A stretch of 64,000 bases of DNA from NCBI GenBank assembly GCA_000435515.1, contig FR884179.1, forward strand, positions 2,780 to 66,779. Reading direction: 5' to 3'. The position numbers and the translations under genes are program-made. This document shows, piece after piece, positions 23,847 through 61,646 of this stretch (positions within the stretch are counted from its first letter, which is position 1; each line of letters starts with the position of its first letter). Source of the stretch: Firmicutes bacterium CAG:582. GTDB taxonomy: Bacteria; Bacillota_I; Bacilli_A; RF39; UBA660. Below the pieces are notes generated by a model that saw only the letters and a list, made by a program, of their open reading frames with translations, was not told the origin of the DNA and searched no databases.

Positions 23847-24578
23847 TTATACATATCTATCTTCAAGTTTTAATCTATCTGCTAAAGTTACAATGAATTC
23901 TCCATTAGTAGGTTTTGACTTATCACAATCAACAGAATTTCCAAATAACTCCTCCATATAGTCATAATCACCTCTACTCCAAGATATTTCAATTGCATGT
24001 CTTATTGCTCTTTCAACTCTTGAAGACGTTGTTTCATAACTTCTAGCAAGTCTTGGATATAACTCTTTTGTTATTGCTCCCATCATCGATGTATCATTAT
24101 ACATCATTTCGATTCCATCTCTTATATAAGAATATCCTTTTAAATTAGAAGGTATTCCTAAATTATGTAACATATCTGTTATTTTTAATTTTATAGTATT
24201 ATTACTTTTATTTTCTTTAAAATATATTGATGCAATAACTCTTTCAAGTTCACTGCAAGAATAAGGTTTCTTTAAGAAATAATTTGGTTGATATGAATTT
24301 ATTTGCATCATCATATCTGGACTCACATATTCACTTGTAATAATAACTTTTCTATTTATACCTAGTTCTTTCATCTTTGAAAGAATTAAACTACATAAAC
24401 ATCCACTTAGTAATAGATTGATAACTAAAACATCATAATCTTCAGTTATTGAAGACATTGCTTCATCCCTATTACTGATTGCTTTTACCACATTGACACT
24501 ACTAGAACTACTGAAATACTCCTCTACTGCATTTATATGATTAACATCTTCGTCAATCAACATTACACGTATCGCCAT
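23847..24578 (-). CDS. spo0A: sporulation master regulator Spo0A (atypical receiver domain)
   Basis: The C-terminal Spo0A DNA-binding domain is unmistakable: ITKELYPRLARSYETTSSRVERAIRHAIEISWSRGD. The N-terminal receiver has DVLVIN where the family has DVLVLD. Confidence 0.9.
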   Translation of the reverse strand: MAIRVMLIDEDVNHINAVEEYFSSSSSVNVVKAISNRDEAMSSITEDYDVLVINLLLSGCLCSLILSKMKELGINRKVIITSEYVSPDMMMQINSYQPNYFLKKPYSCSELERVIASIYFKENKSNNTIKLKITDMLHNLGIPSNLKGYSYIRDGIEMMYNDTSMMGAITKELYPRLARSYETTSSRVERAIRHAIEISWSRGDYDYMEELFGNSVDCDKSKPTNGEFIVTLADRLKLEDRYV

Positions 24579-24656: not shown

Positions 24657-24731
24657 ATGTCAATTTACGTCAACTATTGTCACATTATGTCGAACATAAA
24701 AAAATTGACACATTTTGTACTATTGTGTCAA
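24657..24731 (+). promoter_or_regulatory. array of 0A-box-like heptamers upstream of spo0A
   Basis: TGTCAAT (24657), CGTCAAC (24667), TGTCACA (24677) and TGTCGAA (24687) fall at exact 10-bp spacing. An inverted TGTCAAT lies at 24703-24709 and a direct TGTCAAT at 24725-24731. Confidence 0.5.
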
Positions 24732-34661: not shown

Positions 34662-36432
34662 TGTCGTCTACTCCATTATCAACTACTTCTTCAGAAATTT
34701 TTATTGTTAAAGTTTGACCATTTACAACGGCATCATCAGCTTTTTGACTTTGTTCAAAAATTGTTCCAGCCGGATATTCATCAGTTTCTACATATGAAGT
34801 TGTAAGTTTAACTCCATATTTTGTACACCATTCTTCAATTTGTTTCAAAGAATATGTTCCTTTAGTAAAATCTGGATAAGTTGTTGACATATCAGAAATA
34901 TAAAGAATAATTGTATCTCCTTCAACAAGCTTAGCACCAGCAGCAGGTTCAGTTTTTAATATTTCTTCACTAGTATGATTTCCTTTATCCTCAATTTTTT
35001 CAACTTTAACAAATAAATTATACATTTTTTCTAAGACAGCTTTTTCTTCAATATAATTTTTACCAGTTAAATCCTCCAATGTATATGCATTTTCACCACT
35101 TGAGATATAAATAGTAACTGATGCACCCTTTTTTCTAGTGCTTCCTTTTGATGGATATGTTTTAGTAACATTACCTTCTTTTATTGTAGAAGAAGATTCA
35201 CTCTTTTGTTCATCCGATATCGTAAATCCGGCACTTATAAGTTTACTTTCGGCATCCTCTACACTTAAACCTGTAACATCAGGAACTTTAATATCTTTTA
35301 CAGCTGTTATTCTAGGTATTAAAAATACTAAAGTAGTTACAATAAGTATTAATCCTGTAAATATAATTGCTAAGATAAGCAAAAATTTATTTTCCTTTTT
35401 TCTTAAATCTTTTTCAGTAATCTTTTTAGCTTTTATCTCGACATCTTCTTTCTTCTCTTCAATTTTTTCTTTATCTTTTTCAATTTCTTTTTTTGTTTGT
35501 TTCTTTTCTTGAGGCACTTCACTAGAAGGTACCTTCTTCTTTATTATATCCGCATCATCTTCAGGATATTCAAAAACATATTTTGGTTCATTTATTCTCG
35601 AATCATCCAAAGCCGTTTTTAAATCATCATGCATTTCTTTAGCATCTTGATAACGGTTTTTAACATTTTTAGCTGTTGCCTTCATAATGATGTTATCTAT
35701 CGATTGAGGTGTATTTGGTAAAAGTTCTCTTACCGATGGAACACTTTCTTTGATGTGTTTTAATGCTATTTCAACTGCATTATCGCCTTTAAATGGTAGA
35801 GTTCCTGTTAAAAGTTCATACATCAAAATACCCATTGAATAAACATCACTTTGAATTGTTGCTCCCTTACCACTTGCTTGTTCTGGTGGTAAATAATGAA
35901 CACTTCCCATAACGGAATTAGTTTGAGTAAGTTGAGTTGAATTAAGTGCCATTGCAATACCAAAGTCCGTAATCTTAATCAAACCATTTTCCAAAATCAT
36001 AATATTTTGAGGTTTAATATCACGATGTATTATATAAGAATCGTGTGCAGCACTCATACCATCAGTAACTTGAAGCATGATATCAACAACTTCAGTTAAA
36101 GTCAAACTTCCTCGTTTTTTTAGAAGCTGTTTCAAATGTTTTCCATCAATATATTCCATGACAATATAATATGAACCATTATCTTCACCAACATCATAAA
36201 CTTCGACAATATTTGGATGAGATAAACTGGATGCTGATAAAGCTTCTCTTTGAAATCTTCTAACAAACTTCTCATCTGTTGCTAAGTCTCCTCTTAAAAC
36301 TTTAACTGCAACATTTCTATCAAGAATAGTATCATATGCAAGATAAACATTGGCCATACCACCTTCACCAATTGTTTTGATGATTTGGTATCGGTCGTTT
36401 ATCTTTTGACCCTTCATTATCATACTACACAT
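34654..36432 (-). CDS. prkC: PASTA-domain Ser/Thr protein kinase
   Basis: Hanks kinase motifs GEGGMANVY, VAVK, HRDIKPQN and DFGIA. One TM, then PASTA repeats. The start codon is ambiguous (ATG cluster overlapping the prpC stop). Confidence 0.9.
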   Translation of the reverse strand: MCSMIMKGQKINDRYQIIKTIGEGGMANVYLAYDTILDRNVAVKVLRGDLATDEKFVRRFQREALSASSLSHPNIVEVYDVGEDNGSYYIVMEYIDGKHLKQLLKKRGSLTLTEVVDIMLQVTDGMSAAHDSYIIHRDIKPQNIMILENGLIKITDFGIAMALNSTQLTQTNSVMGSVHYLPPEQASGKGATIQSDVYSMGILMYELLTGTLPFKGDNAVEIALKHIKESVPSVRELLPNTPQSIDNIIMKATAKNVKNRYQDAKEMHDDLKTALDDSRINEPKYVFEYPEDDADIIKKKVPSSEVPQEKKQTKKEIEKDKEKIEEKKEDVEIKAKKITEKDLRKKENKFLLILAIIFTGLILIVTTLVFLIPRITAVKDIKVPDVTGLSVEDAESKLISAGFTISDEQKSESSSTIKEGNVTKTYPSKGSTRKKGASVTIYISSGENAYTLEDLTGKNYIEEKAVLEKMYNLFVKVEKIEDKGNHTSEEILKTEPAAGAKLVEGDTIILYISDMSTTYPDFTKGTYSLKQIEEWCTKYGVKLTTSYVETDEYPAGTIFEQSQKADDAVVNGQTLTIKISEEVVDNGVDDIE

Positions 36433-37174
36433 CCCCGCTTCTATCTTCTTTTACTAAATAAGCTATTGAAATGTTATCTTGTCCACCACGAACATTGCAT
36501 TTTTTAACTAACTTAATAAGTTTATCTTCAACACTTATATCTTCTTCATTTAAAACTTTTTCAATTTGTTCTTGAGTTAACATATTTGTTAAGCCATCGC
36601 TTGAAAGCATTATAGCATCAACATCAGTTTCAACCTCAAATATATCGAACTCACATGTATCAGCAGCTCCCAAAGCACGCATTAAAACATTTCTCTTTGG
36701 ATGATTTTTAGCTTCTCTTTCAGACAAATCACCAGTTTCAACTAAAAAATTAACTAGTGTATGATCATTCGTAATCTTTTTTAATTTACCATTTTTAAAT
36801 ACAAAACCACTTGAATCCCCTATATTAACAAACATCAAGAAATCCTTAGTTAAAAGAGCCATAACACATGTAGTTCCAAGTCCCATTGCTTCAGGATGTT
36901 CATCACTATATTTTAAAATACTAGCATTAACTTCATTTAAGTTTTCTCTTATCCAGTTAACAGCATCAATTTTTGTACCTATAGTTGACAAAGATTGAAA
37001 ACGAGAACCGATTTGAGTTACCACCATACTTGATGCAATTTCACCAGCTCTGTGTCCTCCCATACCATCAGCAACAATCATCAAATGTTCACTTGAAGAA
37101 TTCTTAACAATGGTAACTGAGTCTTCATTATGACTTCTAACTCTTCCTGAATCAGTTATATAAAATGATTTCAT
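36425..37174 (-). CDS. prpC: PP2C-family Ser/Thr phosphatase
   Basis: ...NEDS...VADGMGGHRAGE...SSDGL...GGQDNIS, the PP2C motifs. Confidence 0.9.
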   Translation of the reverse strand: MKSFYITDSGRVRSHNEDSVTIVKNSSSEHLMIVADGMGGHRAGEIASSMVVTQIGSRFQSLSTIGTKIDAVNWIRENLNEVNASILKYSDEHPEAMGLGTTCVMALLTKDFLMFVNIGDSSGFVFKNGKLKKITNDHTLVNFLVETGDLSEREAKNHPKRNVLMRALGAADTCEFDIFEVETDVDAIMLSSDGLTNMLTQEQIEKVLNEEDISVEDKLIKLVKKCNVRGGQDNISIAYLVKEDRSGDV

Positions 37175-41520: not shown

Positions 41521-42927
41521 TTGGTTAAACTATTTAATGGTGATAATATGGACTATATAAAAAAGATAAATGAAGATTATAAAAACGTGACCGATTTAAA
41601 TATCAAAAAAATAAAAAATATCTATATTATCTATCTTGAATCTATTATTGATCAAAACAAAATAAACGATTATATTTTAAAAATCATACCTAAAAGTCAT
41701 ATACCTAGAGATATAAAAGAATTAATTCCAAGTCCTAATATAAAAGATGTTCCTGACTATGATACTTTATCCCTTTATTTGGAATCCGGTTTTACTATTA
41801 TTATAAATAGACATCAAATAATCGCGGTAGAAACAAGAGGAAACTTAGCACGTTCAATCGATACTCCAACTACTGAAAGTACAATATATGGTCCAAAAGA
41901 AGCTTTTGTTGAAAATTATCAAGTTAACTTAGGTTTAATCAAACGTCGAATAAAATCTAAACATTTAAAAAATAAAGATATCTTTATCGGAAGATATACA
42001 AAAAATACCGCAAGTGTTCTTTATATAGAAACAATTGCTGAAGAAAAGATATACAATGACGTTATTGAAAAATTAGAAGCCATTGATCGAGATGGAGTCA
42101 ATGATGTAACTCAGTTAAAAAAATATTTAGGTGATAAAACAAAAAACGCCTTTCCCGCTTTTAAAGTAACTGAAAGACCTGATGTTGTTGCCGCATCTTT
42201 ATTAGAAGGAAAAATAGTTGTTATTCTTGATAACTCTTCCAATGCTTTAATTTTGCCTTCATTTTTAGCCGATTTTATAAATCCAATTGCTGATCATTAT
42301 GAAAAAGCCATAAATATTAACTTTTTAAAAATATTACGTTTTCTTTGTTTCTTTTTAGCTATCTTAACACCAGCTATATATGTCGCTATAACAACATACA
42401 ATCAAGAAACTATACCAACAACCATACTTATCAATTTTCAAGAGCAACGCAGTAAGGTTCCATTTCCAGCTGTAATTGAATGTTTTATCACACTTATCAT
42501 ATGTGAAATTTTAAGAGAAAGTGATATTCGTTTTCCATCAAGTTATGGTTCTGCCACTTCTATTTTAGGAGCTCTTGTTTTAGGCGAAGCAGCTGTATCT
42601 GCAGGTATTGTTTCACCTATAATGATTATTATTGTTGCTATAACTTTTATTTCAAGTTTAATATTTACTGATCTTGAAATAATAAATTCTATAAGACATT
42701 GGAGATTTTTATTCTTATTTGTCGCAGCTATATATGGTCTTTTTGGAATAGGTATTTGTTTTATTGCATTAATTACTTCATTAACTAGTCAAGAAGTGTT
42801 TAATAAACCTTATTTTTATCCCCTATCACCATTTGATCTTACTTATATAAAACAAACCTTATTTAAAATGAAAACAAAGAAACGAAGCAAGTTATTAAGC
42901 AAAAATAGATATAAGGAGGCACCATGA
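41521..42927 (+). CDS. spore germination receptor, GerA-family A subunit
   Basis: GerA-family core ...ESTIYGPKEAFVENYQVNLGLIKRRIK... and C-terminal TM helices. The true start may be the ATG at 41548 (MDYIKK). Confidence 0.85.
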   Translation: MVKLFNGDNMDYIKKINEDYKNVTDLNIKKIKNIYIIYLESIIDQNKINDYILKIIPKSHIPRDIKELIPSPNIKDVPDYDTLSLYLESGFTIIINRHQIIAVETRGNLARSIDTPTTESTIYGPKEAFVENYQVNLGLIKRRIKSKHLKNKDIFIGRYTKNTASVLYIETIAEEKIYNDVIEKLEAIDRDGVNDVTQLKKYLGDKTKNAFPAFKVTERPDVVAASLLEGKIVVILDNSSNALILPSFLADFINPIADHYEKAININFLKILRFLCFFLAILTPAIYVAITTYNQETIPTTILINFQEQRSKVPFPAVIECFITLIICEILRESDIRFPSSYGSATSILGALVLGEAAVSAGIVSPIMIIIVAITFISSLIFTDLEIINSIRHWRFLFLFVAAIYGLFGIGICFIALITSLTSQEVFNKPYFYPLSPFDLTYIKQTLFKMKTKKRSKLLSKNRYKEAP

Positions 42928-43889
42928 AAAAACTAATTATTTTAATTCTAAGTATATTTTTTTTAACAGGATGTGCAAATTATCATGAACTAAATGATCT
43001 TGGAATTGTTTCCTCTATATTAGTAGACTATAAAGACAATCTTTTTTATACAACAATTGAAGTTATTGATGAAGAAGAATTTAAGACCTACTCTGGAATT
43101 GGAAATTCTTTAACAAATGCTTTAAATAACACTTTAATTGGTTCAAGCAAATATCTTTATTATGCTCATTTAAATGCTCTTATTTTAACAAACAATGTAC
43201 CAATTGAAACTACATTAGATTATTTTTTAAGAAGTCCTGAAACCAACAATACATTCTATCTTTGTATTACTGAAAAAACAGATATATATGATCAAGATAA
43301 AAATATGGGAGAAACATTAAAAAACATTTTAGAAAGAGTTTATAAAGATAACTTCTTTGATACAATAAAAAAACTAAAAGATAAAAACACTGACTTTGTA
43401 TTACCAATATTAGATGAAGACCTAAAAGTCAGTAAATTAAATCTATATAAAGGTAATAAAATGGTTACAACTCTAAATAATAATGAACTTAATACTTTAA
43501 AGTTGCTTTTTGGCTATGAAGAACTTTATATAAAAAATGGTAAAGATGATTACATTGAATTAAGTGTAAATAAAATTGATAAGAAAATTGATATAAAAGA
43601 AAAAATAAAAATAAGTTTAGATTTAGAAACAACAGTAAGGCAAATTACAACTGGCGAAGAAGCAAATAATATAAAAGACGTAAAAAAAATACAGAAAAGA
43701 TATAATAAAGAAATAGAAAATAATATTTATGAATTAATAGATAAATTAAAAACCTATCAAGTAGATGTTTTAGGAATAAACAATATGTTATTAAACAAAT
43801 TTCATAATATGGACAAACATTTCTATGATTATGATTTTGATATTGAAGTAAATACTCATATTAATAAGAAAGGACTTCTAATAAAATGA
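42924..43889 (+). CDS. spore germination receptor C subunit lipoprotein (Ger(x)C family)
   Basis: Lipobox FLTGCANYHELNDLGIV, typical of the GerAC/GerKC N-terminus. Overlaps both neighbours by 4 nt. Confidence 0.8.
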   Translation: MKKLIILILSIFFLTGCANYHELNDLGIVSSILVDYKDNLFYTTIEVIDEEEFKTYSGIGNSLTNALNNTLIGSSKYLYYAHLNALILTNNVPIETTLDYFLRSPETNNTFYLCITEKTDIYDQDKNMGETLKNILERVYKDNFFDTIKKLKDKNTDFVLPILDEDLKVSKLNLYKGNKMVTTLNNNELNTLKLLFGYEELYIKNGKDDYIELSVNKIDKKIDIKEKIKISLDLETTVRQITTGEEANNIKDVKKIQKRYNKEIENNIYELIDKLKTYQVDVLGINNMLLNKFHNMDKHFYDYDFDIEVNTHINKKGLLIK

Positions 43890-44836
43890 AAAAAGAATGG
43901 AACATTTTAAACTTTTTCAATATGCAAGGTTTATTTCTAGCAATAGGTTTTTCTAAGATACTGATTTCTTCCAAAGAAAAATTTCTATTTTCTATTTTAA
44001 TAGGTTATATTTTAGGAATGATACTTTTATATTTTCTAGATATCAAGAAAAAAAACAATATTTTTAATATCATACTTTATTCAATAATATCCGTATATGC
44101 TTTAGTAATTCTAATTAATATGGCATCAACTATGTATTTAAATTTAATGAGTAAATCAATGATAAGCATCCCTCTTTTGCTTTTGATGCTCTATGTATTA
44201 AATAAAAAGGAAATCGTCTTATATCGTGTAAGTAATATCATGATAGTTGTAAATATATGCATTTATCTTTTTGCTTTATTTTGTTTACTTCCATATTTTG
44301 ATATCACAAACTTTGTTTATACACATACTAAACCAATGAATATTTTAACGTCTGGTTTAAACTATACAATATTATCAACATCAATTGTACTTATGACTAA
44401 AGAAAATCAAAGAAAAGATGTAAGTATTTTAAAAACTTATACACTAGCAACAATATTTTTAATTATTGATTGTGTTATGATTTATGGAATATTTTCATAT
44501 CCACTTGTAGAAGTAGTAAGATATCCCGAATATGTTTTATTAAAAAAAATATCAATCGGAGGTTTTATTCAAAACTTAGAAAACTTAATTTCATTCATAT
44601 GGCTATTCAATATTATAATAAGCTTAGTATATTTAACAAATAGTATAAAAAATTGTTTACCTAATAAAAAAATAATAAATTTAATAGTACCTATTCTTTT
44701 CATATTTGCAAGTATAGTTAATAAATATTATGTAGCAATGCTTACGATGTATAAATACGAACCATTTATATTAGGTATAACATCATTAGTATTCATCATT
44801 TTTAATTATAATTTCAAGAAAAAAAACCACAAATAA
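43886..44836 (+). CDS. spore germination receptor B subunit (GerAB/GerKB-like permease), short form
   Basis: Polytopic membrane protein in the third position of an A-C-B operon (gerK-like order). 316 aa is shorter than the usual ~360 aa. Confidence 0.65.
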   Translation: MKKEWNILNFFNMQGLFLAIGFSKILISSKEKFLFSILIGYILGMILLYFLDIKKKNNIFNIILYSIISVYALVILINMASTMYLNLMSKSMISIPLLLLMLYVLNKKEIVLYRVSNIMIVVNICIYLFALFCLLPYFDITNFVYTHTKPMNILTSGLNYTILSTSIVLMTKENQRKDVSILKTYTLATIFLIIDCVMIYGIFSYPLVEVVRYPEYVLLKKISIGGFIQNLENLISFIWLFNIIISLVYLTNSIKNCLPNKKIINLIVPILFIFASIVNKYYVAMLTMYKYEPFILGITSLVFIIFNYNFKKKNHK

Positions 44837-53702: not shown

Positions 53703-55610
53703 CTAAAAACTATATACTTTTTTCGTATCATAAAGTTCTTCATTAATAGAAACAAAAACACGATATCTATCACTAGGAATATCAATATTAAATACATTAT
53801 TAATATTCTTATCATCTTCATTTTTATAAACAAAAGAATATACTTTACCTCTTCTATTTAAGAAATAAAACTTAACTTCATCATTTTCATTTATTTTATA
53901 ATTTGTTGAAAAAGTATGCTTTGTAAACTCAAATGTATTTATCCATTCCATAGAAGAATCAACATCTATTTCATTTATTGATAAAACATCTAAATCAGAT
54001 TTTTCCACGGTATCAATGATATTAAATTGTTCCAAATCAACATTTTTAGTTTCTTCATCATAAAGATTATGTTTAAATGCACGATACTTACCTTCTTCAG
54101 TAGTAGCTTTAAATACTACTTTATCATTTTCATCCAACTCAATTATTAAACTATATATATCATCAACGTTTTTTTCAACTTCTACTAAACTATTATCACT
54201 TTTATCTCTAAAATCATCTTTTAAAATATAGCCACAATCCATAAACTTATGATTATTTTCTAAAACATTAAATATTCCATATTTTATAGAAAAATACTTT
54301 TTATCAAAATCACTTTTCCAAACAAGATTAGCCACATTATTTTTTATATCATAGATTTCCATAGCTGTATAAGCTGAATTATAATCCCCAACTTTATTGG
54401 ATTTATTTTCAAATGCTACTCCATAACGGTCATATCCGTTATTAAACAAAGCTAAATAACCATCTTTAGTAATTGTTGGAGTATGTTGCCCTAGTGGATA
54501 TCTTCCCGACTTTACTTTAACTAAATATTTTTTCCATACGTCAGAAGAGAATAAAGAATCAGCTCCTGTAAATACATAATTAAGTTTTTTGTTTTTATAA
54601 TCAAAATTAAACACTGTATTTATTTCTCTAAATGATACAACTAGATTTCCATTTTCTTCATCATAATAAAATCCGTTACGTATGGCTTTTGGTCCTAGAT
54701 ATTCTTCAGGAAAATCAGAATCTATTTCTTTTATTACTTCATATATATCAAGACCATCTATAACTTTTCCATCACTAGGATTCATTTCATAAATATATTG
54801 ATGATTAAAATAAATTGCTTTATCTCCACCTGCTAACATATAGTTACCATTTTTTAAAATTTGCATTTCAAATCCATAACCATGTTCCAAATTATAATAA
54901 TTATATATTTTTCCTAAATAATCCATTTCGACTAGACCAACAAAATTTTCACGAACCTGACCTTCAGAAGTACCAATTAAAAAATGTCCATTTGGAAGCC
55001 ACTCAACATCCATACGATTATCAACAGTTAAATAAAATCTTAATTTTCCATCTTTATCCCAGCCAGTAAAATAGGTTTTATATGAAGCAACCGTAAAGAT
55101 TATTCCGTTTTTATCGTTGATAACTTCATTTTTTTCAACATTTAAAGGATATTCAACATTTGCTTTTTCACATTTTATATAATATGTATATTCATACCCA
55201 TCCGTTTTCAAAGTGACTTTATTATTAAAGTCATCATATAAACCATATATTGGAATTACATGTTCTTGAGATTTTTCCATTTTAGTAAAGTATTCATCAT
55301 TAATATACACATCTATTGAATTTTTCTCTTTAGTTTGAAATATAATAATAGCTGATAATGGACTTATACCATAAGGATTTAATTCAACATATGCATTTTC
55401 AACGGTATATTTTTTACTTTTTCTAACCTTATCTAAACGATTATTTACCTTTTCTTGAATACTTACTTGTTCAATTGTTGAAGATAAAGTACTTCCTTTA
55501 AAGTAACTACTTAATCTTCTAGTTTCATTAAAACAATAAACTAAAACTACACCTAAAGTAACTATGATTAATATAATAAGATTAATTAATTTTTTCATAT
55601 CTACCTCCAA
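53703..55610 (-). CDS. membrane-anchored beta-propeller-like protein, possibly arylsulfotransferase (ASST) family
   Basis: N-terminal TM. NPYGISPLSAIIIFQT resembles the ASST N-domain. The rest is beta-rich. Call from memory only. Confidence 0.35.
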   Translation of the reverse strand: MEVDMKKLINLIILIIVTLGVVLVYCFNETRRLSSYFKGSTLSSTIEQVSIQEKVNNRLDKVRKSKKYTVENAYVELNPYGISPLSAIIIFQTKEKNSIDVYINDEYFTKMEKSQEHVIPIYGLYDDFNNKVTLKTDGYEYTYYIKCEKANVEYPLNVEKNEVINDKNGIIFTVASYKTYFTGWDKDGKLRFYLTVDNRMDVEWLPNGHFLIGTSEGQVRENFVGLVEMDYLGKIYNYYNLEHGYGFEMQILKNGNYMLAGGDKAIYFNHQYIYEMNPSDGKVIDGLDIYEVIKEIDSDFPEEYLGPKAIRNGFYYDEENGNLVVSFREINTVFNFDYKNKKLNYVFTGADSLFSSDVWKKYLVKVKSGRYPLGQHTPTITKDGYLALFNNGYDRYGVAFENKSNKVGDYNSAYTAMEIYDIKNNVANLVWKSDFDKKYFSIKYGIFNVLENNHKFMDCGYILKDDFRDKSDNSLVEVEKNVDDIYSLIIELDENDKVVFKATTEEGKYRAFKHNLYDEETKNVDLEQFNIIDTVEKSDLDVLSINEIDVDSSMEWINTFEFTKHTFSTNYKINENDEVKFYFLNRRGKVYSFVYKNEDDKNINNVFNIDIPSDRYRVFVSINEELYDTKKVYSF

Positions 55611-56479
55611 ATATCAAATGATACTTCATTAAAATATCTGTATAATGGATTTAATATTGGATCAACCTCTTTATTTTTTTCTATATCGGCATTTTCATAA
55701 ACTCCTGTTATCTCTAGAGAATTATAAATTGCATGAGTTGTTAATGCACTTAAATAAAAACCTTCATCTGTAAGTTCTAAAAATAATGATGTGTCATTTA
55801 TTAAAATATTATATTGATAATAATTAATAACATTCATCTTTAATTTATCATTGATATTTAAAGAATATCCTTTATTACCAAATGTTAAAGTTATATTATT
55901 TTTACCATTAACTTCAATTTTTTTATCATTAATATTTATTACATAATCGTCCAATCTTAAAGAATAACTTGAAACTTGTTTAATAAATCCATTTGTTTTA
56001 ACATCAATTGTTATAGTTTTAAAATCGGTACTATATATCTGATTTATAATATCTTTATCCAACTCATAAACTATAATATTATTTTTAGTTGTCTTATTAA
56101 CTATTAGTTCTGGTTCTAAAGTTTTTAAACTTGCAAATGTATCAATTATCTTAGTTAAAATAGACATATCAAACTCTAAAAAACCATCCTCATTTTCAAC
56201 AATATATATACCATTATCTAAAGAAAAATTATAATTAAACTCACTGGGATTGCTTTCTCCATGAGCACCCTTATATAGAGCATTAAGTTTTATTTTTCCA
56301 GTTTTATTAAAACTTATATTTATATTTCTTGCATAATCTCCAACTTTAATTATTTTTTCATTTAAATCATTAATAACGTAATCTCTTAACTTAAAATCAT
56401 CATTATATATTGTATGAATACATACAACACTTATAAAAAGAGCAACTATTATAAATAAAGTATTTTTTATTTTTTTCAT
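55601..56479 (-). CDS. hypothetical membrane-anchored protein
   Basis: N-terminal TM and a beta-rich ectodomain. Overlaps the downstream gene by 10 nt. Confidence 0.4.
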   Translation of the reverse strand: MKKIKNTLFIIVALFISVVCIHTIYNDDFKLRDYVINDLNEKIIKVGDYARNINISFNKTGKIKLNALYKGAHGESNPSEFNYNFSLDNGIYIVENEDGFLEFDMSILTKIIDTFASLKTLEPELIVNKTTKNNIIVYELDKDIINQIYSTDFKTITIDVKTNGFIKQVSSYSLRLDDYVININDKKIEVNGKNNITLTFGNKGYSLNINDKLKMNVINYYQYNILINDTSLFLELTDEGFYLSALTTHAIYNSLEITGVYENADIEKNKEVDPILNPLYRYFNEVSFDIWR

Positions 56480-56541
56480 ATTATCACCTATTGTATTAAT
56501 ATTATAACAACTAATAAATAAAAAAAAAAGTGCAACAAAGG

Positions 56542-57741
56542 TTACACTGGTGTATTTTGTAAAGTAACACAGTTAGAAAATCCACTAAAAGAACAAACTG
56601 TAGACATATCCTTGCTTGCCAAATTAAATGCACTTTCATTATATGCCCTTATAGTGGATGATGTTAGCTTGATTTCACCTAATTTAGTTAAATTATATCC
56701 AGAAATCATAAATATATTATTTGTTAAATAAAGATATATTTCATGTTTTTGTTTGACATTATTGATTAATACATATCCTCTAATATCACTTTTTTTCAAA
56801 TCATTTACTACATCTAAAATATAAACATTTTCCTGTAAAGTTATATTGTTTAAGGAATTTATTACATCATTTACTTTACTATGAAAATTTTCTTTTCCAC
56901 CATCTTTATCATACGAAAGATCATTTAAATTGCTACAGCCTTTCTTACTATATGAACGACATATATCTGCAACAGTTTTAGTTGAAATTTTCTCATCTTT
57001 TTTCATTATTTTTGATTTTTTAAATTCATCAACATATTTATAGTTAACATACATATACATATCATTATAAACTGTATAAACATATTTTATCTCACTTATA
57101 TCTTGAGCATCCACAATAATATATCCCGAAAACTCATCTTGATTAACTTCGTAATAATATATACCACTTGTATTAATCCCATTAATACTTTTTATTTTTT
57201 CAATTAATTTTGATTGAACATCATTTAAACCCGAGATAAATATATCTTTTGAACTTAAATTATCTTGAACTTTAAACTCGCCAGCTAAATTAATTTTATC
57301 TTCTAAATAAGATTTTATAACAATCTTTATTGACATATTTGTCTTTTTATAAGCAATTAAATTATATATCAACTTATCAGTTAAAATACTTTCATCCTTA
57401 AGCAATTGATAATTATCTTCACTTATTTTATAGTAGATTGAATATTTAACTAGTTCATTTGAAACATTTAAATCATTAATGTTTATTGAAAGAGTTACAT
57501 CCTTGTCTGTTTCATTTTTTATATCAATATATTTCTCATAAACATTTCCATATGTAATATCTGTATTAAACAAATTTCCAGCTTTATATGTTACTCCTAT
57601 ATCAACATTATCAACTAGTATTTTGCTTATATAATCGTTTTCATAATCTCCTTTAGAATCTTTTCTTTTAAACAAAAAAGAGATGCTTATTCCCAAAATA
57701 AAAACGATTATAATTATAATAAATGGTAACTTATTTTTCAT
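56542..57741 (-). CDS. hypothetical membrane-anchored protein
   Basis: N-terminal TM. No recognised motif. First gene of an apparent three-gene operon. Confidence 0.4.
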   Translation of the reverse strand: MKNKLPFIIIIIVFILGISISFLFKRKDSKGDYENDYISKILVDNVDIGVTYKAGNLFNTDITYGNVYEKYIDIKNETDKDVTLSININDLNVSNELVKYSIYYKISEDNYQLLKDESILTDKLIYNLIAYKKTNMSIKIVIKSYLEDKINLAGEFKVQDNLSSKDIFISGLNDVQSKLIEKIKSINGINTSGIYYYEVNQDEFSGYIIVDAQDISEIKYVYTVYNDMYMYVNYKYVDEFKKSKIMKKDEKISTKTVADICRSYSKKGCSNLNDLSYDKDGGKENFHSKVNDVINSLNNITLQENVYILDVVNDLKKSDIRGYVLINNVKQKHEIYLYLTNNIFMISGYNLTKLGEIKLTSSTIRAYNESAFNLASKDMSTVCSFSGFSNCVTLQNTPV

Positions 57742-57792: not shown

Positions 57793-58116
57793 TTAGTTTT
57801 TAACTTTAAAAATTAATGTTACAATAGCTGCACATAAAATAGAAGATACTATACCTGTAGAAACATTTCCAAGCATATTTAAAATACCTAATTTTAATGC
57901 GCCATTATAAAGAGTATTACCAAAAGACATAATCACTACACTTGCTCCTCCTCCAAAGAACTTTACAAGTTTATCATAAATTCCCAAAAATCCGAGTAAA
58001 GCTCCAATAGAAACAAACAAACTAGTGATATGTCCACTTGTAAGTTTAGTATTATCTTTAATAATTTGTGCAATAACACAAACAATTCCTGTAAATATAA
58101 ATGATTTAATTATCAT
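57793..58116 (-). CDS. spoVAE: stage V sporulation protein AE (SpoVAEB-type)
   Basis: 107-aa polytopic protein with ...GHITSLFVSIGALLGFLGIYDKLVKFFGGGASVVIMSFGN... Conserved spoVAC-AD-AE order. Confidence 0.85.
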   Translation of the reverse strand: MIIKSFIFTGIVCVIAQIIKDNTKLTSGHITSLFVSIGALLGFLGIYDKLVKFFGGGASVVIMSFGNTLYNGALKLGILNMLGNVSTGIVSSILCAAIVTLIFKVKN

Positions 58117-59072
58117 AATACCTCCAATTCTACCACGTGAGCAATTGCTGGGATTGATTTTTTTTGATTAACAAGTGTAGGATTATGCAATGCACCAGTT
58201 CCAACAATAAGTATTTTCTTATTTCTTTTACTTAGTAAAACCTTATTGAATAGATAAAGTGGCAACACAACTGGACCACTTGCTCCACTTAATTTGTTTT
58301 GATTACTTTTATATAAACTAGCACCCGCATCAATTATATTAGATGCACTCATTCCATATTCTTCTTTTAAAATCATCAGTAAAAGTTCATTTCCTAAAGA
58401 GCCAAGATCACCTGTTAAAACAACATCATAATCATTTACTTTTTTATGCATATTCTTTAAATGTTCAACGATAGCCTTAGAAGCAGCTGGAGCCATAACT
58501 GCTCCCATATTTGCAACATCTTTAATATCATAATCAACTACGCTTCCAATTGTCGATGAAATAATTTTACATTTAGTTGTTTCATTAGATATTACACACC
58601 CAACACTTCCAGTTGCCGTAACAGTTGTATATTTTGCCTTTAATGAACCATATTCTATGGGGAATCTAAACTGTCTTTCACTCGTAAGTTCATGTGAACT
58701 TGTCAATAAACAAACTTTGTTTATTTGTTTTGAGGATATAAAATTAGCACCAATGATCATTGATTCTACAAAACTTGCACAAGCACCATAAACTCCTAAA
58801 AATGACATATTATTATTTTTTAATGTATAGTTCATACATCCAAGTTGATTTGATAGATCTCCTCCAATTACCAAATTGAAATCATGTACACTGGATAAAT
58901 TATTGATAACTGTCTTTTGCATCTTTATTTCTGCATCCTCTAAAGTCTTTTCTCCATAATATTTATCCTTTAAAACCATATTAACATTTTTAATGTTACC
59001 ATTTGCTTCATCACTTCCACATATTGTAAACCAATTATTCACATAAACATTATTGTATTTTATAGTAACCAT
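58113..59072 (-). CDS. spoVAD: stage V sporulation protein AD
   Basis: Thiolase-like SpoVAD sequence (...GGDLSNQL...GVYGACASFVESM...). Sits between spoVAC and spoVAE. Confidence 0.9.
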   Translation of the reverse strand: MVTIKYNNVYVNNWFTICGSDEANGNIKNVNMVLKDKYYGEKTLEDAEIKMQKTVINNLSSVHDFNLVIGGDLSNQLGCMNYTLKNNNMSFLGVYGACASFVESMIIGANFISSKQINKVCLLTSSHELTSERQFRFPIEYGSLKAKYTTVTATGSVGCVISNETTKCKIISSTIGSVVDYDIKDVANMGAVMAPAASKAIVEHLKNMHKKVNDYDVVLTGDLGSLGNELLLMILKEEYGMSASNIIDAGASLYKSNQNKLSGASGPVVLPLYLFNKVLLSKRNKKILIVGTGALHNPTLVNQKKSIPAIAHVVELEVL

Positions 59073-59461
59073 ATTAATCCTTTCACTAAAGCAAGTACAC
59101 TTGCAGATAATATTCCATATAGAATAACACTTCCAGCCAGTTTAAAATAGTTGCTTCCAATTCCAGTAATAAGTCCTTCATTTTTATATTCTAAAGAGGA
59201 TGAGGTAACTGAATGAGAAAATCCTGTAATTGGAATAATTACCCCCATTTTAAACTTATCAACAATATCATCAAAAACTCCAAGTCCAGTTAAAAAAGAC
59301 GCGAGAACAATCCATATAACAAGCATGTATTCAACCGAGAAACATTTTACTAAAATTTCTGAAATTGCTCCAATGGTTCCTCCAGATAAAAAAGCAATAA
59401 GCATATTTTTTAATCTATTCTCTTTTGGAGTTAAAGATTCAACTAACTTTTTATAATTCAT
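59060..59461 (-). CDS. spoVAC: stage V sporulation protein AC
   Basis: ...LIAFLSGGTIGAISEIL...GVIIPITGFSHS...GLITGIGSNYFKLAGSVILYG..., typical of SpoVAC. Confidence 0.9.
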   Translation of the reverse strand: MNYKKLVESLTPKENRLKNMLIAFLSGGTIGAISEILVKCFSVEYMLVIWIVLASFLTGLGVFDDIVDKFKMGVIIPITGFSHSVTSSSLEYKNEGLITGIGSNYFKLAGSVILYGILSASVLALVKGLIWLL

Positions 59462-59493
59462 ATAAAAACCTCCATTTATATTATGGAGATTTT

Positions 59494-60108
59494 TTAGGAA
59501 ATATATTCAAGCAATTCTTGTTTTCCTTTACTTTCCAATCTTGACACTTTTACCTGAGATATTCCCAAGACTTTAGCAACTTCACTTTGAGTCATATCCT
59601 CTTTATATCTATACTTAAGTACTAAAGATGATAAAGGATCTAAAGATTCAATTGACTCCATCAAAATCATCTCATCTTCATTTATGGAATTAACACCTAT
59701 TTGAATATTTTCATATTCATCATCTAAACTGAACATCTCTTCACAAAGCATCGATACATATTCGATTTCTTCCAGAGGAAATTCAATATAATCACTTATT
59801 TCTTTAAATGATGGTTCCTTATTTAAAACCTGTGCCAAATATGATCTTGCTTTAATTACAAGTTTATATAAATTGAGATAATACTTATTGAGTTTAATGT
59901 TACGACTTTTAACTGATAGTTCATACATCTCCCCAAAAATGTATTTATAAGCATAATTTAAAAAAGGTCCAAACTCCTCTTTATAGTTTTTTTGTGCTTT
60001 AATAAGCCCCAAATACCCAGCTTGGTAAAGATCTTCCTTTTCTACATTATAAAATTTCTTTGCTACTCTACGTATTAAAAATTCTTCTTCAGAAATTATT
60101 TTTTCCAC
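59494..60108 (-). CDS. sigF: sporulation sigma factor, SigF-type (short, 204 aa)
   Basis: Region 2 DLYQAGYLGLIKAQKNY. Region 4 RYKEDMTQSEVAKVLGISQVKVSRLESKG matches the SigF/G/B group. Lies between spoIIAA and spoVAC. The GTG start overlaps the spoIIAA stop (TAGTG). Confidence 0.8.
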   Translation of the reverse strand: MEKIISEEEFLIRRVAKKFYNVEKEDLYQAGYLGLIKAQKNYKEEFGPFLNYAYKYIFGEMYELSVKSRNIKLNKYYLNLYKLVIKARSYLAQVLNKEPSFKEISDYIEFPLEEIEYVSMLCEEMFSLDDEYENIQIGVNSINEDEMILMESIESLDPLSSLVLKYRYKEDMTQSEVAKVLGISQVKVSRLESKGKQELLEYIS

Positions 60109-60425
60109 TAAATTTTTAAAAGATCTAAAGCAACCAATTCATCAGTTATTTTATCAAATCTCAAACAAGTATTTACTTTATTATTTATTAATAATACACG
60201 ACCATCATTTTCTTTAACACTTTTTCCACCACTTAAAAGAGCATTTTCACCAACTGAATCAATAGATGAAAGTCCCTCTAAATTATAAACCATGTATTTT
60301 ATTCCATAATCTTCAATAATAGGTAATGTATATTCCATGAATTTTGGTGCAGTATTTTTATTTAAATTGCCCTTAAGTCTTACAAACAATATTCCCTTCC
60401 GATACTCTAAATTAATCTTCAACAT
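60108..60425 (-). CDS. spoIIAA: anti-sigma-F factor antagonist SpoIIAA (STAS domain)
   Basis: STAS fold with the conserved phospho-Ser context NLEGLSSIDSVGENAL (compare LSFMDSSGLG). The start is moved to MLKINLEY because GGGTGA lies upstream of it. Confidence 0.8.
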   Translation of the reverse strand: MLKINLEYRKGILFVRLKGNLNKNTAPKFMEYTLPIIEDYGIKYMVYNLEGLSSIDSVGENALLSGGKSVKENDGRVLLINNKVNTCLRFDKITDELVALDLLKI

Positions 60426-60497
60426 TTTTATCACCCACATTCGTTATAACTTAAATTAAATACGTATAAAAGAGATTCGACAAAATGATATTTTATC

Positions 60498-61646
60498 TTA
60501 CTTTTTTCTATGTAAAGTAAATATGATTATCTGTAAAGTAATAATAAGAAGAATAACGATTACTATAAATTTAATATTACTTGTTTTTTCTTTTGGAACT
60601 ATTTCATTAAATAAAGGTTCAGCTTGTAAAATCTCATTTTCTTCTAAATCTAAACCATTATTCTCATCACCGACTAATTTAGTTGTTGTAGTAGAAACTT
60701 TTTTTGGTTTAACCATTCTTGTAGTTGTTTTTGTAACCTTACTAGTTTTATCAATTGAAACGTCATCACTTATTTCTTCTTTTATTCTCGTATAGTAATT
60801 ATATTTAGTTATATAATCGTCATAAATTAAATTTTCTCCTTCAGTTACATAATCATTTAAAATAACTTTTTCTTCTCCATAACAATGATATTTCTTTATT
60901 TCTTTTTTGTAATATGGATTTAAAGATTCAAAAGTCTGACCATTTCCATTAGTAAAGCCATAATTTATAGACCCATATTTATTTTTAAGTTCATTAAAGT
61001 TAAGATCGTCAACAAAATATATATGGTTTGCTAAATTTTTAACAACTATTGTAGGTCCATTCTGAAAAAGATACATTGCTTTTGAATGAATTTCATCACC
61101 TATGATATTTATTATAATATCTTTTGCCAAATAACGACTTTGAATAAAAACCCCTATTTTATTACCATAAGATAAAGTGTAATAAGTACTTCTATCTCCA
61201 TCATTTAAATTTTTATAAATCTCTTTATTAGAATCCATAAATACATAATCGACCTTTTTATCACCACTAAAAACTTCAATTTCATATATTTTTACAGGTT
61301 CATCAAAATCATAAAAAGAGAAAGCTGTAAGAATAGAACTTGATGAAATTCCAACTGGTTGATATTTAATTCCTCCTGGTATTTCTTCCTTTGATTCTAC
61401 AGTTTCTAAAATATAGTCTGATGTATCACAGTTAATACACTCTTCTTTGTAACCCAAATCAACTTTCTTTATTTCATAAGTATTATAAAGTTTAACCTCC
61501 TCTCTTTTTAAAGTATCAGTTTCTTCCATATATTTATCAGTATTCATAATGAATTCTTGATATTCACCATAAACAACATTTGCATATACAAAAGACGGAC
61601 TTATAATCAAAAGTATAATTATAAGTATCAATATTTTTTTCTTCAT
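60498..61646 (-). CDS. hypothetical secreted protein with a C-terminal TM anchor
   Basis: Signal peptide, a Thr-rich stalk (KVTKTTTRMVKPKKVSTTTTK), and a C-terminal hydrophobic helix followed by HRKK. Confidence 0.4.
   Translation of the reverse strand: MKKKILILIIILLIISPSFVYANVVYGEYQEFIMNTDKYMEETDTLKREEVKLYNTYEIKKVDLGYKEECINCDTSDYILETVESKEEIPGGIKYQPVGISSSSILTAFSFYDFDEPVKIYEIEVFSGDKKVDYVFMDSNKEIYKNLNDGDRSTYYTLSYGNKIGVFIQSRYLAKDIIINIIGDEIHSKAMYLFQNGPTIVVKNLANHIYFVDDLNFNELKNKYGSINYGFTNGNGQTFESLNPYYKKEIKKYHCYGEEKVILNDYVTEGENLIYDDYITKYNYYTRIKEEISDDVSIDKTSKVTKTTTRMVKPKKVSTTTTKLVGDENNGLDLEENEILQAEPLFNEIVPKEKTSNIKFIVIVILLIITLQIIIFTLHRKK

Follow-up and report, generated by a model that had tools for sequence, protein, structure and literature searches.

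The window, by which we mean the whole stretch of 64,000 nucleotides that was analysed, carries on its reverse strand a row of sporulation genes headed by a SpoIIAA-type STAS gene (60108..60425), followed by a short sigma-F-like gene (59494..60108; GTG start, 204 aa with regions 2, 3 and 4) and then by spoVAC (59060..59461), spoVAD (58113..59072) and spoVAE (57793..58116). The three spoVA genes are readily recognized: SpoVAC by Pfam SpoVAC_SpoVAEB (5e-26) and TIGR02838 (3e-36), SpoVAD by Pfam SpoVAD (3e-86), and SpoVAE by TIGR02839 (2.5e-22). The first-ATG open reading frame of the STAS gene (60440..60108) encodes 110 aa. Most homologues are 105 aa long and begin at Met6 of the window protein, and a conserved GGGTGAT ribosome-binding site sits 5' of the Met6 ATG; the start is therefore likely at 60425, which yields a protein of 105 aa.

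The STAS and sigma genes meet in the pentanucleotide TAGTG (60106..60110), where, in the raw sequence, a single G is common to the STAS stop codon TAG (60110..60108) and the sigma start codon GTG (60108..60106). An overlap of this kind is predicted to be translational coupling. With one base in common, no open reading frame, and hence no spoIIAB, fits between the two genes. The overlap and the lack of space for spoIIAB had been pointed out in a first-pass annotation of the sequence, and both the open reading frames and the raw sequence confirm them. The same annotation had called the two products SpoIIAA-like and sigma-F-like and the sigma factor N-terminally short, and these assignments are borne out by Pfam, NCBIfam and PDB profile matches as follows.

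The STAS protein matches Pfam STAS (3e-11), and its best NCBIfam models are ant_ant_sig and spore_II_AA, with scores far under the curated cut-offs (40.6 bits for the SpoIIAA equivalog TIGR02886, cut-off 114.75). When a profile built from the lineage homologues was compared with the PDB, the best match was Geobacillus SpoIIAA (1TH8_B, 7e-17). The AlphaFold2 model (pLDDT 92) likewise has as its top Foldseek matches 1THN_B and 1TH8_B (TM 0.85), both of which are SpoIIAA chains out of SpoIIAA-SpoIIAB complexes. The protein thus has the STAS fold, a length in the range of about 105–117 aa and SpoIIAA as its nearest characterized relative; of the expected position directly 5' of spoIIAB and sigF, sigF is present and spoIIAB is missing. 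The sigma factor shows the Pfam domains Sigma70_r2, r3 and r4, and its best NCBIfam models are SigB/F/G and spore_sigF, the latter being the best of equivalog type, with 96 bits against a cut-off of 321 (TIGR02885). Since both proteins score far under the equivalog cut-offs, both are divergent. In the PDB the sigma profile finds sigma-F first (1L0O_C, the sigma-F chain of the SpoIIAB-sigma-F crystal; 5e-32), and the runner-up, a SigB-type protein, is ten orders worse (2e-21). The first position to align is residue 31 of the G. stearothermophilus sigma-F chain, which leaves the protein short of about 30 N-terminal residues; its linker between sigma3 and sigma4 is also shorter than in sigma-F, and together these differences explain a length of 204 aa where about 250 aa would be full length. 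We therefore place the protein as a group-3 sigma factor with regions 2, 3 and 4 that is nearest to sigma-F and shares with it the synteny with spoVA and an upstream 0A box, from which we infer dependence on Spo0A. The short form is typical of its kind: over 1000 homologues came up in a protein search, and the best 120, from MAGs labelled Bacilli or Erysipelotrichales, are nearly all 203–219 aa long.

The gene order STAS-sigma-spoVAC-spoVAD-spoVAE, lacking an HATPase gene, recurs on independent contigs at sigma identities of 61%, 58% and 50%, and one contig with this order is 1.44 Mb long. A scan with the sigma alignment confirmed 544 relatives among the GTDB species representatives; the best 80 of the 544 were read, and with seven contig loci they form a set of 87 related loci, which includes a closed circular chromosome of 1.54 Mb (OZ007038.1). 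In about 75 of these loci, an open reading frame of 95–120 aa adjoins the sigma gene at a distance of -14 to +30 nt, and most of these frames are detectably STAS-like. Comparison of the operon among relatives, which had been proposed alongside the first-pass annotation, hence finds STAS-sigma lacking spoIIAB again and again. A tblastn search for SpoIIAB/RsbW in the window and the 87 related loci gave no match at E<=1e-3, and hmmsearch and phmmer with filters off, run on all 2292 stop-to-stop open reading frames of the window and these loci, gave none below E=0.3; B. subtilis SpoIIAA, SpoIIAB, RsbW, sigma-F and Spo0A served as reference sequences, the register of SpoIIAA having been cross-checked against the PDB alignment. 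As judged by these searches, neither the operon nor the rest of the 64-kb window nor any of the 87 related loci encodes a GHKL-type anti-sigma kinase (SpoIIAB/RsbW).

These results fit the report of Field, Bowerman and Hugenholtz (2024), who list spoIIAB and spoIIE among the genes with reduced or no presence in RF39, in a presence/absence table that reflects KO annotation, and who predict RF39 sporulation under strongly differing regulation (PMC10868615). The spoIIAB-less arrangement is ancient and lineage-wide, its loci coming from a deep clade of uncultured Bacilli that includes named RF39 genera. Its distribution also shows that the deletion of spoIIAB from the operon predates diversification of the lineage. 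Loss of spoIIAB through an error of assembly or sequencing at 60108 had been named as a possible source of the junction; the identical junction in independent ENA, Logan, JGI and NCBI assemblies, including the long-read contigs of 1.44 and 1.54 Mb, excludes this for all practical purposes. Two nearby genes were considered as regulatory partners and rejected. The sole PP2C of the window (36425-37174) is at 249 aa a small PrpC-type partner of a PASTA kinase and not a SpoIIE, and the 382-aa gene upstream of the STAS gene (60498..61646) encodes a protein that carries a signal peptide, is anchored in the membrane at its C-terminus, evolves fast (it is 46% identical where sigma is 97% identical) and is absent in many loci.

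In the textbook scheme, sigma-F is activated in the forespore only, by means of the SpoIIE-SpoIIAA-SpoIIAB partner switch. We evaluated the residues on which this switch depends in an alignment of 162 distinct lineage STAS proteins and B. subtilis SpoIIAA. The window protein has a serine, in the context IDSVG, at the position of SpoIIAA Ser58. Across the alignment, the residue at this position is Asn in 44 proteins, Ser in 41 (about 25%), Glu in 18, Lys in 16 and Asp in 15, the rest being Ile, Cys, Gly and others, and close relatives of the window have Asn, Thr, Glu or Lys. The flanking Asp57 and Gly60 are kept in 160/162 and 161/162 proteins, respectively (about 99%). The first-pass annotation was hence right that the window protein has a serine in IDSVG, and misleading in taking this as a retained phosphorylatable context: a conserved phosphorylatable serine is not a property of the lineage, and the IDSVG serine is best described as one state of an unconstrained residue. 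As the Ser58 position drifts, there is no selection for a kinase/phosphatase cycle, and the alignment shows that such a cycle no longer acts on the lineage STAS proteins. The GELD motif, whose residues we take to be part of the SpoIIAB docking surface, with SpoIIAA Asp23 docking on SpoIIAB Arg20, has also changed: its acidic residues are replaced in the pattern G-N-L-N/T, such that the E21 position is Glu in 9/162 and the D23 position Asp in 2/162, a change that we report as an observation on the sequences. With Ser58 and GELD both unconstrained, the canonical SpoIIAB interface has changed, while the conserved Asp57/Gly60 loop is one that faces SpoIIAB in SpoIIAA.

These substitutions bear on whether the locus is the product of a plain rearrangement, with a canonical, active SpoIIAB kinase and SpoIIE encoded elsewhere and a Bacillus-like circuit still in place. 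The serine at the phospho-site of the window protein would suit such a circuit, but an active kinase cycle would not tolerate a site at which about three in four of the 162 proteins lack serine and close relatives carry Asn, Thr, Glu or Lys; given, in addition, the reduced or absent spoIIAB and spoIIE of RF39 (PMC10868615), we consider a rearrangement very unlikely.

The genes at the locus are well maintained. On unsaturated pairs, STAS dN/dS is 0.03–0.12, equal to or under that of sigma, so that both proteins are under strong purifying selection. Upstream of the STAS gene, about 55 nt 5' of its start codon, lies the heptamer TGTCGAA (60476..60482, minus strand; extended TTTTGTCGAAT), which we take to be a Spo0A box on the basis of the consensus from B. 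subtilis. The exact heptamer, usually within TTTGTCGAA, is found at -55..-61 of the STAS start in 55/63 distinct upstream regions, and TGNCGAA in 62/63, against a background for TGTCGAA of 2% per 163-nt interval and 0.1% per 13-nt slot. A second signal precedes spoVAC (59479..59508, minus strand) and consists of a -35 element GAATA (59508..59504) within the last sigma codons, an 18-nt spacer and a -10 element CATAATA (59485..59479); again by the B. subtilis consensus, it is a forespore-type (sigma-F/G-like) promoter. The pattern G[ACT]AT[AG]-N17-18-CAT[N][ACT]TA occurs before spoVAC in 52/63 distinct loci, as compared with 0.6% of random windows. Elsewhere in the window there are an intact Spo0A (Spo0A_C 4e-39), a CtpB-like protease and a gerA-type receptor operon.

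To place the window among its relatives, we built a neighbour-joining tree from sigma and SpoVAD. The relatives found in the GTDB representative scan include Ca. Coprosoma and Ca. Coprovivens, which belong to RF39/CAG-822 and RF39/CAG-1000, respectively (PMC8035907). In this midpoint-rooted two-gene tree, the place of the window is between Ca. Coprosoma and Ca. Coprovivens: the Coprosoma group branches off at the base, and the Coprovivens group has as its sister the large group to which the window belongs. On this two-gene basis, the window is most probably a member of RF39. A Hadza gut MAG shares about 97% identity with the window in these proteins. Eight of the 87 loci, Ca. Coprovivens among them, have no STAS gene, and there the 0A-box promoter (TTTGTCGAACCTGTTTAAAA...CTATATTCTA) lies directly 5' of the sigma gene. 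Because the basal lineages have STAS, its loss in this one subclade is secondary and clean. Taken together, the gene orders form a stepwise series, from SpoIIAA-SpoIIAB-sigma-F in canonical spore-formers (Bacillus and Turicibacter, for example) through SpoIIAA-sigma-F, the state of most of the clade, to a sigma-F with neither partner gene in one family.

The window Spo0A has an asparagine at the phospho-acceptor position. Its nearest 50%-identity cluster representative, 64% identical to it, shares this asparagine, and most representatives at a greater distance have Asp. The exchange is probably younger than the loss of spoIIAB, and, being seen only in the window and the nearest representative, it does not explain a loss that is clade-wide. 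The first-pass annotation had connected the missing spoIIAB with the Asp-less Spo0A, a link that is weak for this reason. In the species of the window itself, the exchange shows that a second phospho-switch is gone.

The degenerating pathway that the annotation had also suggested is not supported by these observations. Decay would mean that sporulation is fading in a reduced genome and that STAS and sigma are functionless leftovers, and one could cite in its favour the small AT-rich genome (26% GC), the Spo0A of this species with no phospho-acceptor Asp, the STAS loss in one subclade, the fact that RF39 spores have never been seen, a literature search for experimental RF39 spores having found none, and the non-sporulating scores that RF39 MAGs receive from a machine-learning tool (PMC12536801). 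However, the open reading frames are intact in nearly all 87 loci, with dN/dS of 0.03–0.2; the Spo0A box and the forespore promoter have each stayed at the same place over deep divergence; the spoVA, gerA, ctpB-like and spo0A genes of the window are intact; and the arrangement is ancient. We consider decay improbable.

Based on these observations, we favour a rewired, stripped-down sigma-F module that works without phosphorylation, and assign this explanation a probability of roughly one half. Rewired regulation was one of three readings offered in the first-pass annotation, and it is the one that the lineage-wide layout, the selection and the promoters support. In such a module, Spo0A would turn on a bicistronic STAS-sigma-F transcript, so that production of sigma-F would be switched at the level of transcription, and STAS, made in step with sigma-F, would serve as a phosphorylation-independent modulator. 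The target of STAS would most likely be sigma-F itself, which STAS would hold or inhibit, taking over part of the role of SpoIIAB. We favour such a direct, probably restraining action because (i) both known partners of STAS are gone, (ii) STAS is co-made with sigma-F, (iii) the evolutionary distances of STAS follow those of sigma more closely than the SpoVAD baseline accounts for (partial r 0.68, versus 0.15 for STAS-SpoVAD) and (iv) one family tolerated the loss of STAS, which is easier to reconcile with a modulator than with an essential activator. Mirror-tree correlations such as this partial r of 0.68 are easily confounded, and the co-variation is a weak, suggestive hint at a link between STAS and sigma. 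STAS would be dispensable and not essential, because the subclade that includes Ca. Coprovivens lost STAS and kept the promoter and sigma; this loss could also mean that the role of STAS is marginal.

A more specific proposal is that STAS has swapped its partner and binds sigma-F as a phosphorylation-free, one-protein holder or anti-sigma factor that replaces SpoIIAB and SpoIIE. We know of no STAS protein that binds a sigma factor directly, and among 98 STAS homologues there were no natural STAS-sigma or STAS-HATPase fusions. We put this proposal forward tentatively and consider it rather unlikely.

The main rival to the rewired module retains the partner switch: an unrecognized anti-sigma factor encoded elsewhere, which could be a very divergent or kinase-dead relative of SpoIIAB/RsbW or a non-GHKL protein, would hold sigma-F, and STAS would be its antagonist, controlled by something else than phosphorylation. 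The strong conservation of STAS and its intact SpoIIAB-facing Asp57/Gly60 loop speak for this, and an absence scored by KO annotation may miss divergent genes, as it could in a lineage in which STAS and sigma themselves fall far under their cut-offs. There are also precedents. In mycobacteria, the STAS antagonist RsfA acts without phosphorylation control and pairs with the non-kinase anti-sigma factor UsfX, and in P. aeruginosa the STAS protein HsbA binds FlgM; a review of STAS-only proteins lists non-canonical members with partners not yet known. The mycobacterial SigF system (UsfX/RsbW, RsfA, RsfB) thus resembles the present one in its phosphorylation-independent STAS antagonist and differs from it in that the anti-sigma gene adjoins sigF there, whereas none is detectable in the window and the 87 loci. 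Against an unrecognized anti-sigma factor stand, besides this lack of an HATPase-type open reading frame, the exact and ancient deletion in the operon, the unconstrained GELD and Ser58 positions with their changed interface, the subclade that has sigma yet no STAS, and the published scarcity of spoIIAB in RF39 (PMC10868615). We regard it as a serious possibility, albeit one that is unlikely on balance, and retain the rewired module as the favoured explanation.

Compared with the spoIIA operon of Bacillus, Clostridia and Turicibacter, the locus is alike in having SpoIIAA and sigma-F at either end, of orthologue grade as judged by their best PDB relatives, spoVAC-AD-AE downstream, a Spo0A box upstream and a forespore-type spoVA promoter. 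It differs in that spoIIAB is missing, the phospho-Ser and GELD positions are unconstrained and the sigma factor lacks about 30 N-terminal residues; SpoIIE, too, is missing from the RF39 order according to the literature (PMC10868615). Turicibacter sanguinis, a gut spore-former from a Bacillota lineage studied as distant from the Bacilli and Clostridia models, has kept the genes for SpoIIAA, SpoIIAB and sigma-F in a row, under consecutive locus tags (PMC13492147), and all endospore formers are regarded as having SpoIIAA, SpoIIAB and SpoIIE (Galperin et al. preprint). Single-domain STAS proteins with partners besides a GHKL anti-sigma kinase are found in V. fischeri (SypA), P. aeruginosa (HsbA) and E. 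coli (MlaB). In SypA and HsbA, unlike here, the phospho-Ser and a dedicated kinase and phosphatase are still required, and none of the three is translationally coupled to a sigma factor.

The bare absence of spoIIAB and spoIIE in RF39 is already known (PMC10868615). What appears to be new is the junction within the operon, together with the drift at the phospho-site, the selection that acts on an orphan SpoIIAA, the conserved Spo0A and forespore promoters and the stepwise loss. The RF39 table of Field et al. 2024 has nothing on the junction, on how the phospho-site was lost, on selection acting on STAS, on promoter conservation or on the secondary STAS loss (PMC10868615). RF39 is a large, common gut group with Spo0A, sigma-F, spoVA, germination receptors, promoter signals and SpoIIAA, and, without the anti-sigma kinase and the phospho-site, it amounts to a natural experiment on minimal sporulation regulation, in which the orphan SpoIIAA points to a novel STAS role. 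If STAS does bind sigma-F directly, the first compartment-specific step of endospore formation would proceed in RF39 with no phosphorylation switch on sigma-F. The prediction of spore-formers among gut taxa is affected as well, since RF39 comes out as non-sporulating in gene-content classifiers that depend on spoIIAB (PMC12536801).

Finally, the region between sigma and spoVAC contains a hairpin, CTCCAT-N7-ATGGAG followed by a T-run (59488..59470), which overlaps the spoVA promoter and contains the spoVAC ribosome-binding site.

The predicted forespore-type promoter of spoVAC, GAATA-N18-CATAATA (within 59470–59508, minus strand; consensus as in B. subtilis), is a pattern present in 52 of the 63 distinct related sigma loci, and its -35 element falls within the codons for the conserved C-terminal ‘EYIS’ of the short sigma-F-like protein. 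In the window's clade, a hairpin followed by a T-run encloses the -10 element of this promoter together with the ribosome-binding site, and could terminate or attenuate transcription between sigma and spoVA. Downstream of spoVAE, three genes encoding products of 399, 292 and 635 aa (53703–57741, minus strand) retain their order in many related loci and may be part of the same forespore-expressed unit as spoVA; the 635-aa product is arylsulfotransferase-like, and the 399-aa and 292-aa products have no Pfam match.

Linkage of spoVA to sigma is not universal in the clade, since no spoVA genes were detected downstream of sigma in related loci L058, L059, L061 and L063–L067. A short ORF adjoins sigma in all of these, but a resemblance of that ORF to STAS is detectable in just L058, L059, L061 and L063. 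The SpoIIAA-type STAS gene has also been lost in a subclade of CAG-1000-like RF39 that includes Ca. Coprovivens (L051, L052, L054–L057, L060 and L062), where sigma directly follows the promoter with the Spo0A box (0A box) and spoVA has a variant -10 element, CACAATA or CAAAATA. The sigma relatives in L068, L080 and L085 are 232 aa long, and are preceded by a near-identical, more G+C-rich leader that contains GGGAGTCCTGATCAATAGTTGGTG and is possibly structured; these proteins may represent a different sigma paralogue with an upstream RNA element.

Just upstream of the STAS gene, a 382-aa protein without a Pfam match (60498–61646, minus strand) combines a signal peptide with a membrane anchor at its C terminus. 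It evolves very fast, with 46–62% identity to its counterparts in strains whose sigma is 96–97% identical, and many related loci lack its gene; the protein probably sits at the cell surface and experiences diversifying pressure.

The Spo0A homologue (23847–24578, minus strand; Spo0A_C 4e-39, receiver domain weak) has Asn at the position of the phospho-acceptor Asp (VLVINLLLSG), a substitution otherwise found only in the nearest cluster representative (64% identical); most of the farther representatives have Asp, with N, E, S or C scattered among them. A TGTCGAA box (24688–24694, plus strand) precedes the gene by about 110 bp. The window also encodes a complete gerA-type germinant receptor operon (41521–44836, plus strand; GerA 7e-130, GerAC), in which a 316-aa membrane protein with no Pfam match occupies the GerAB position, and several relatives (L001, L006) have a similar operon close to their sigma operon.
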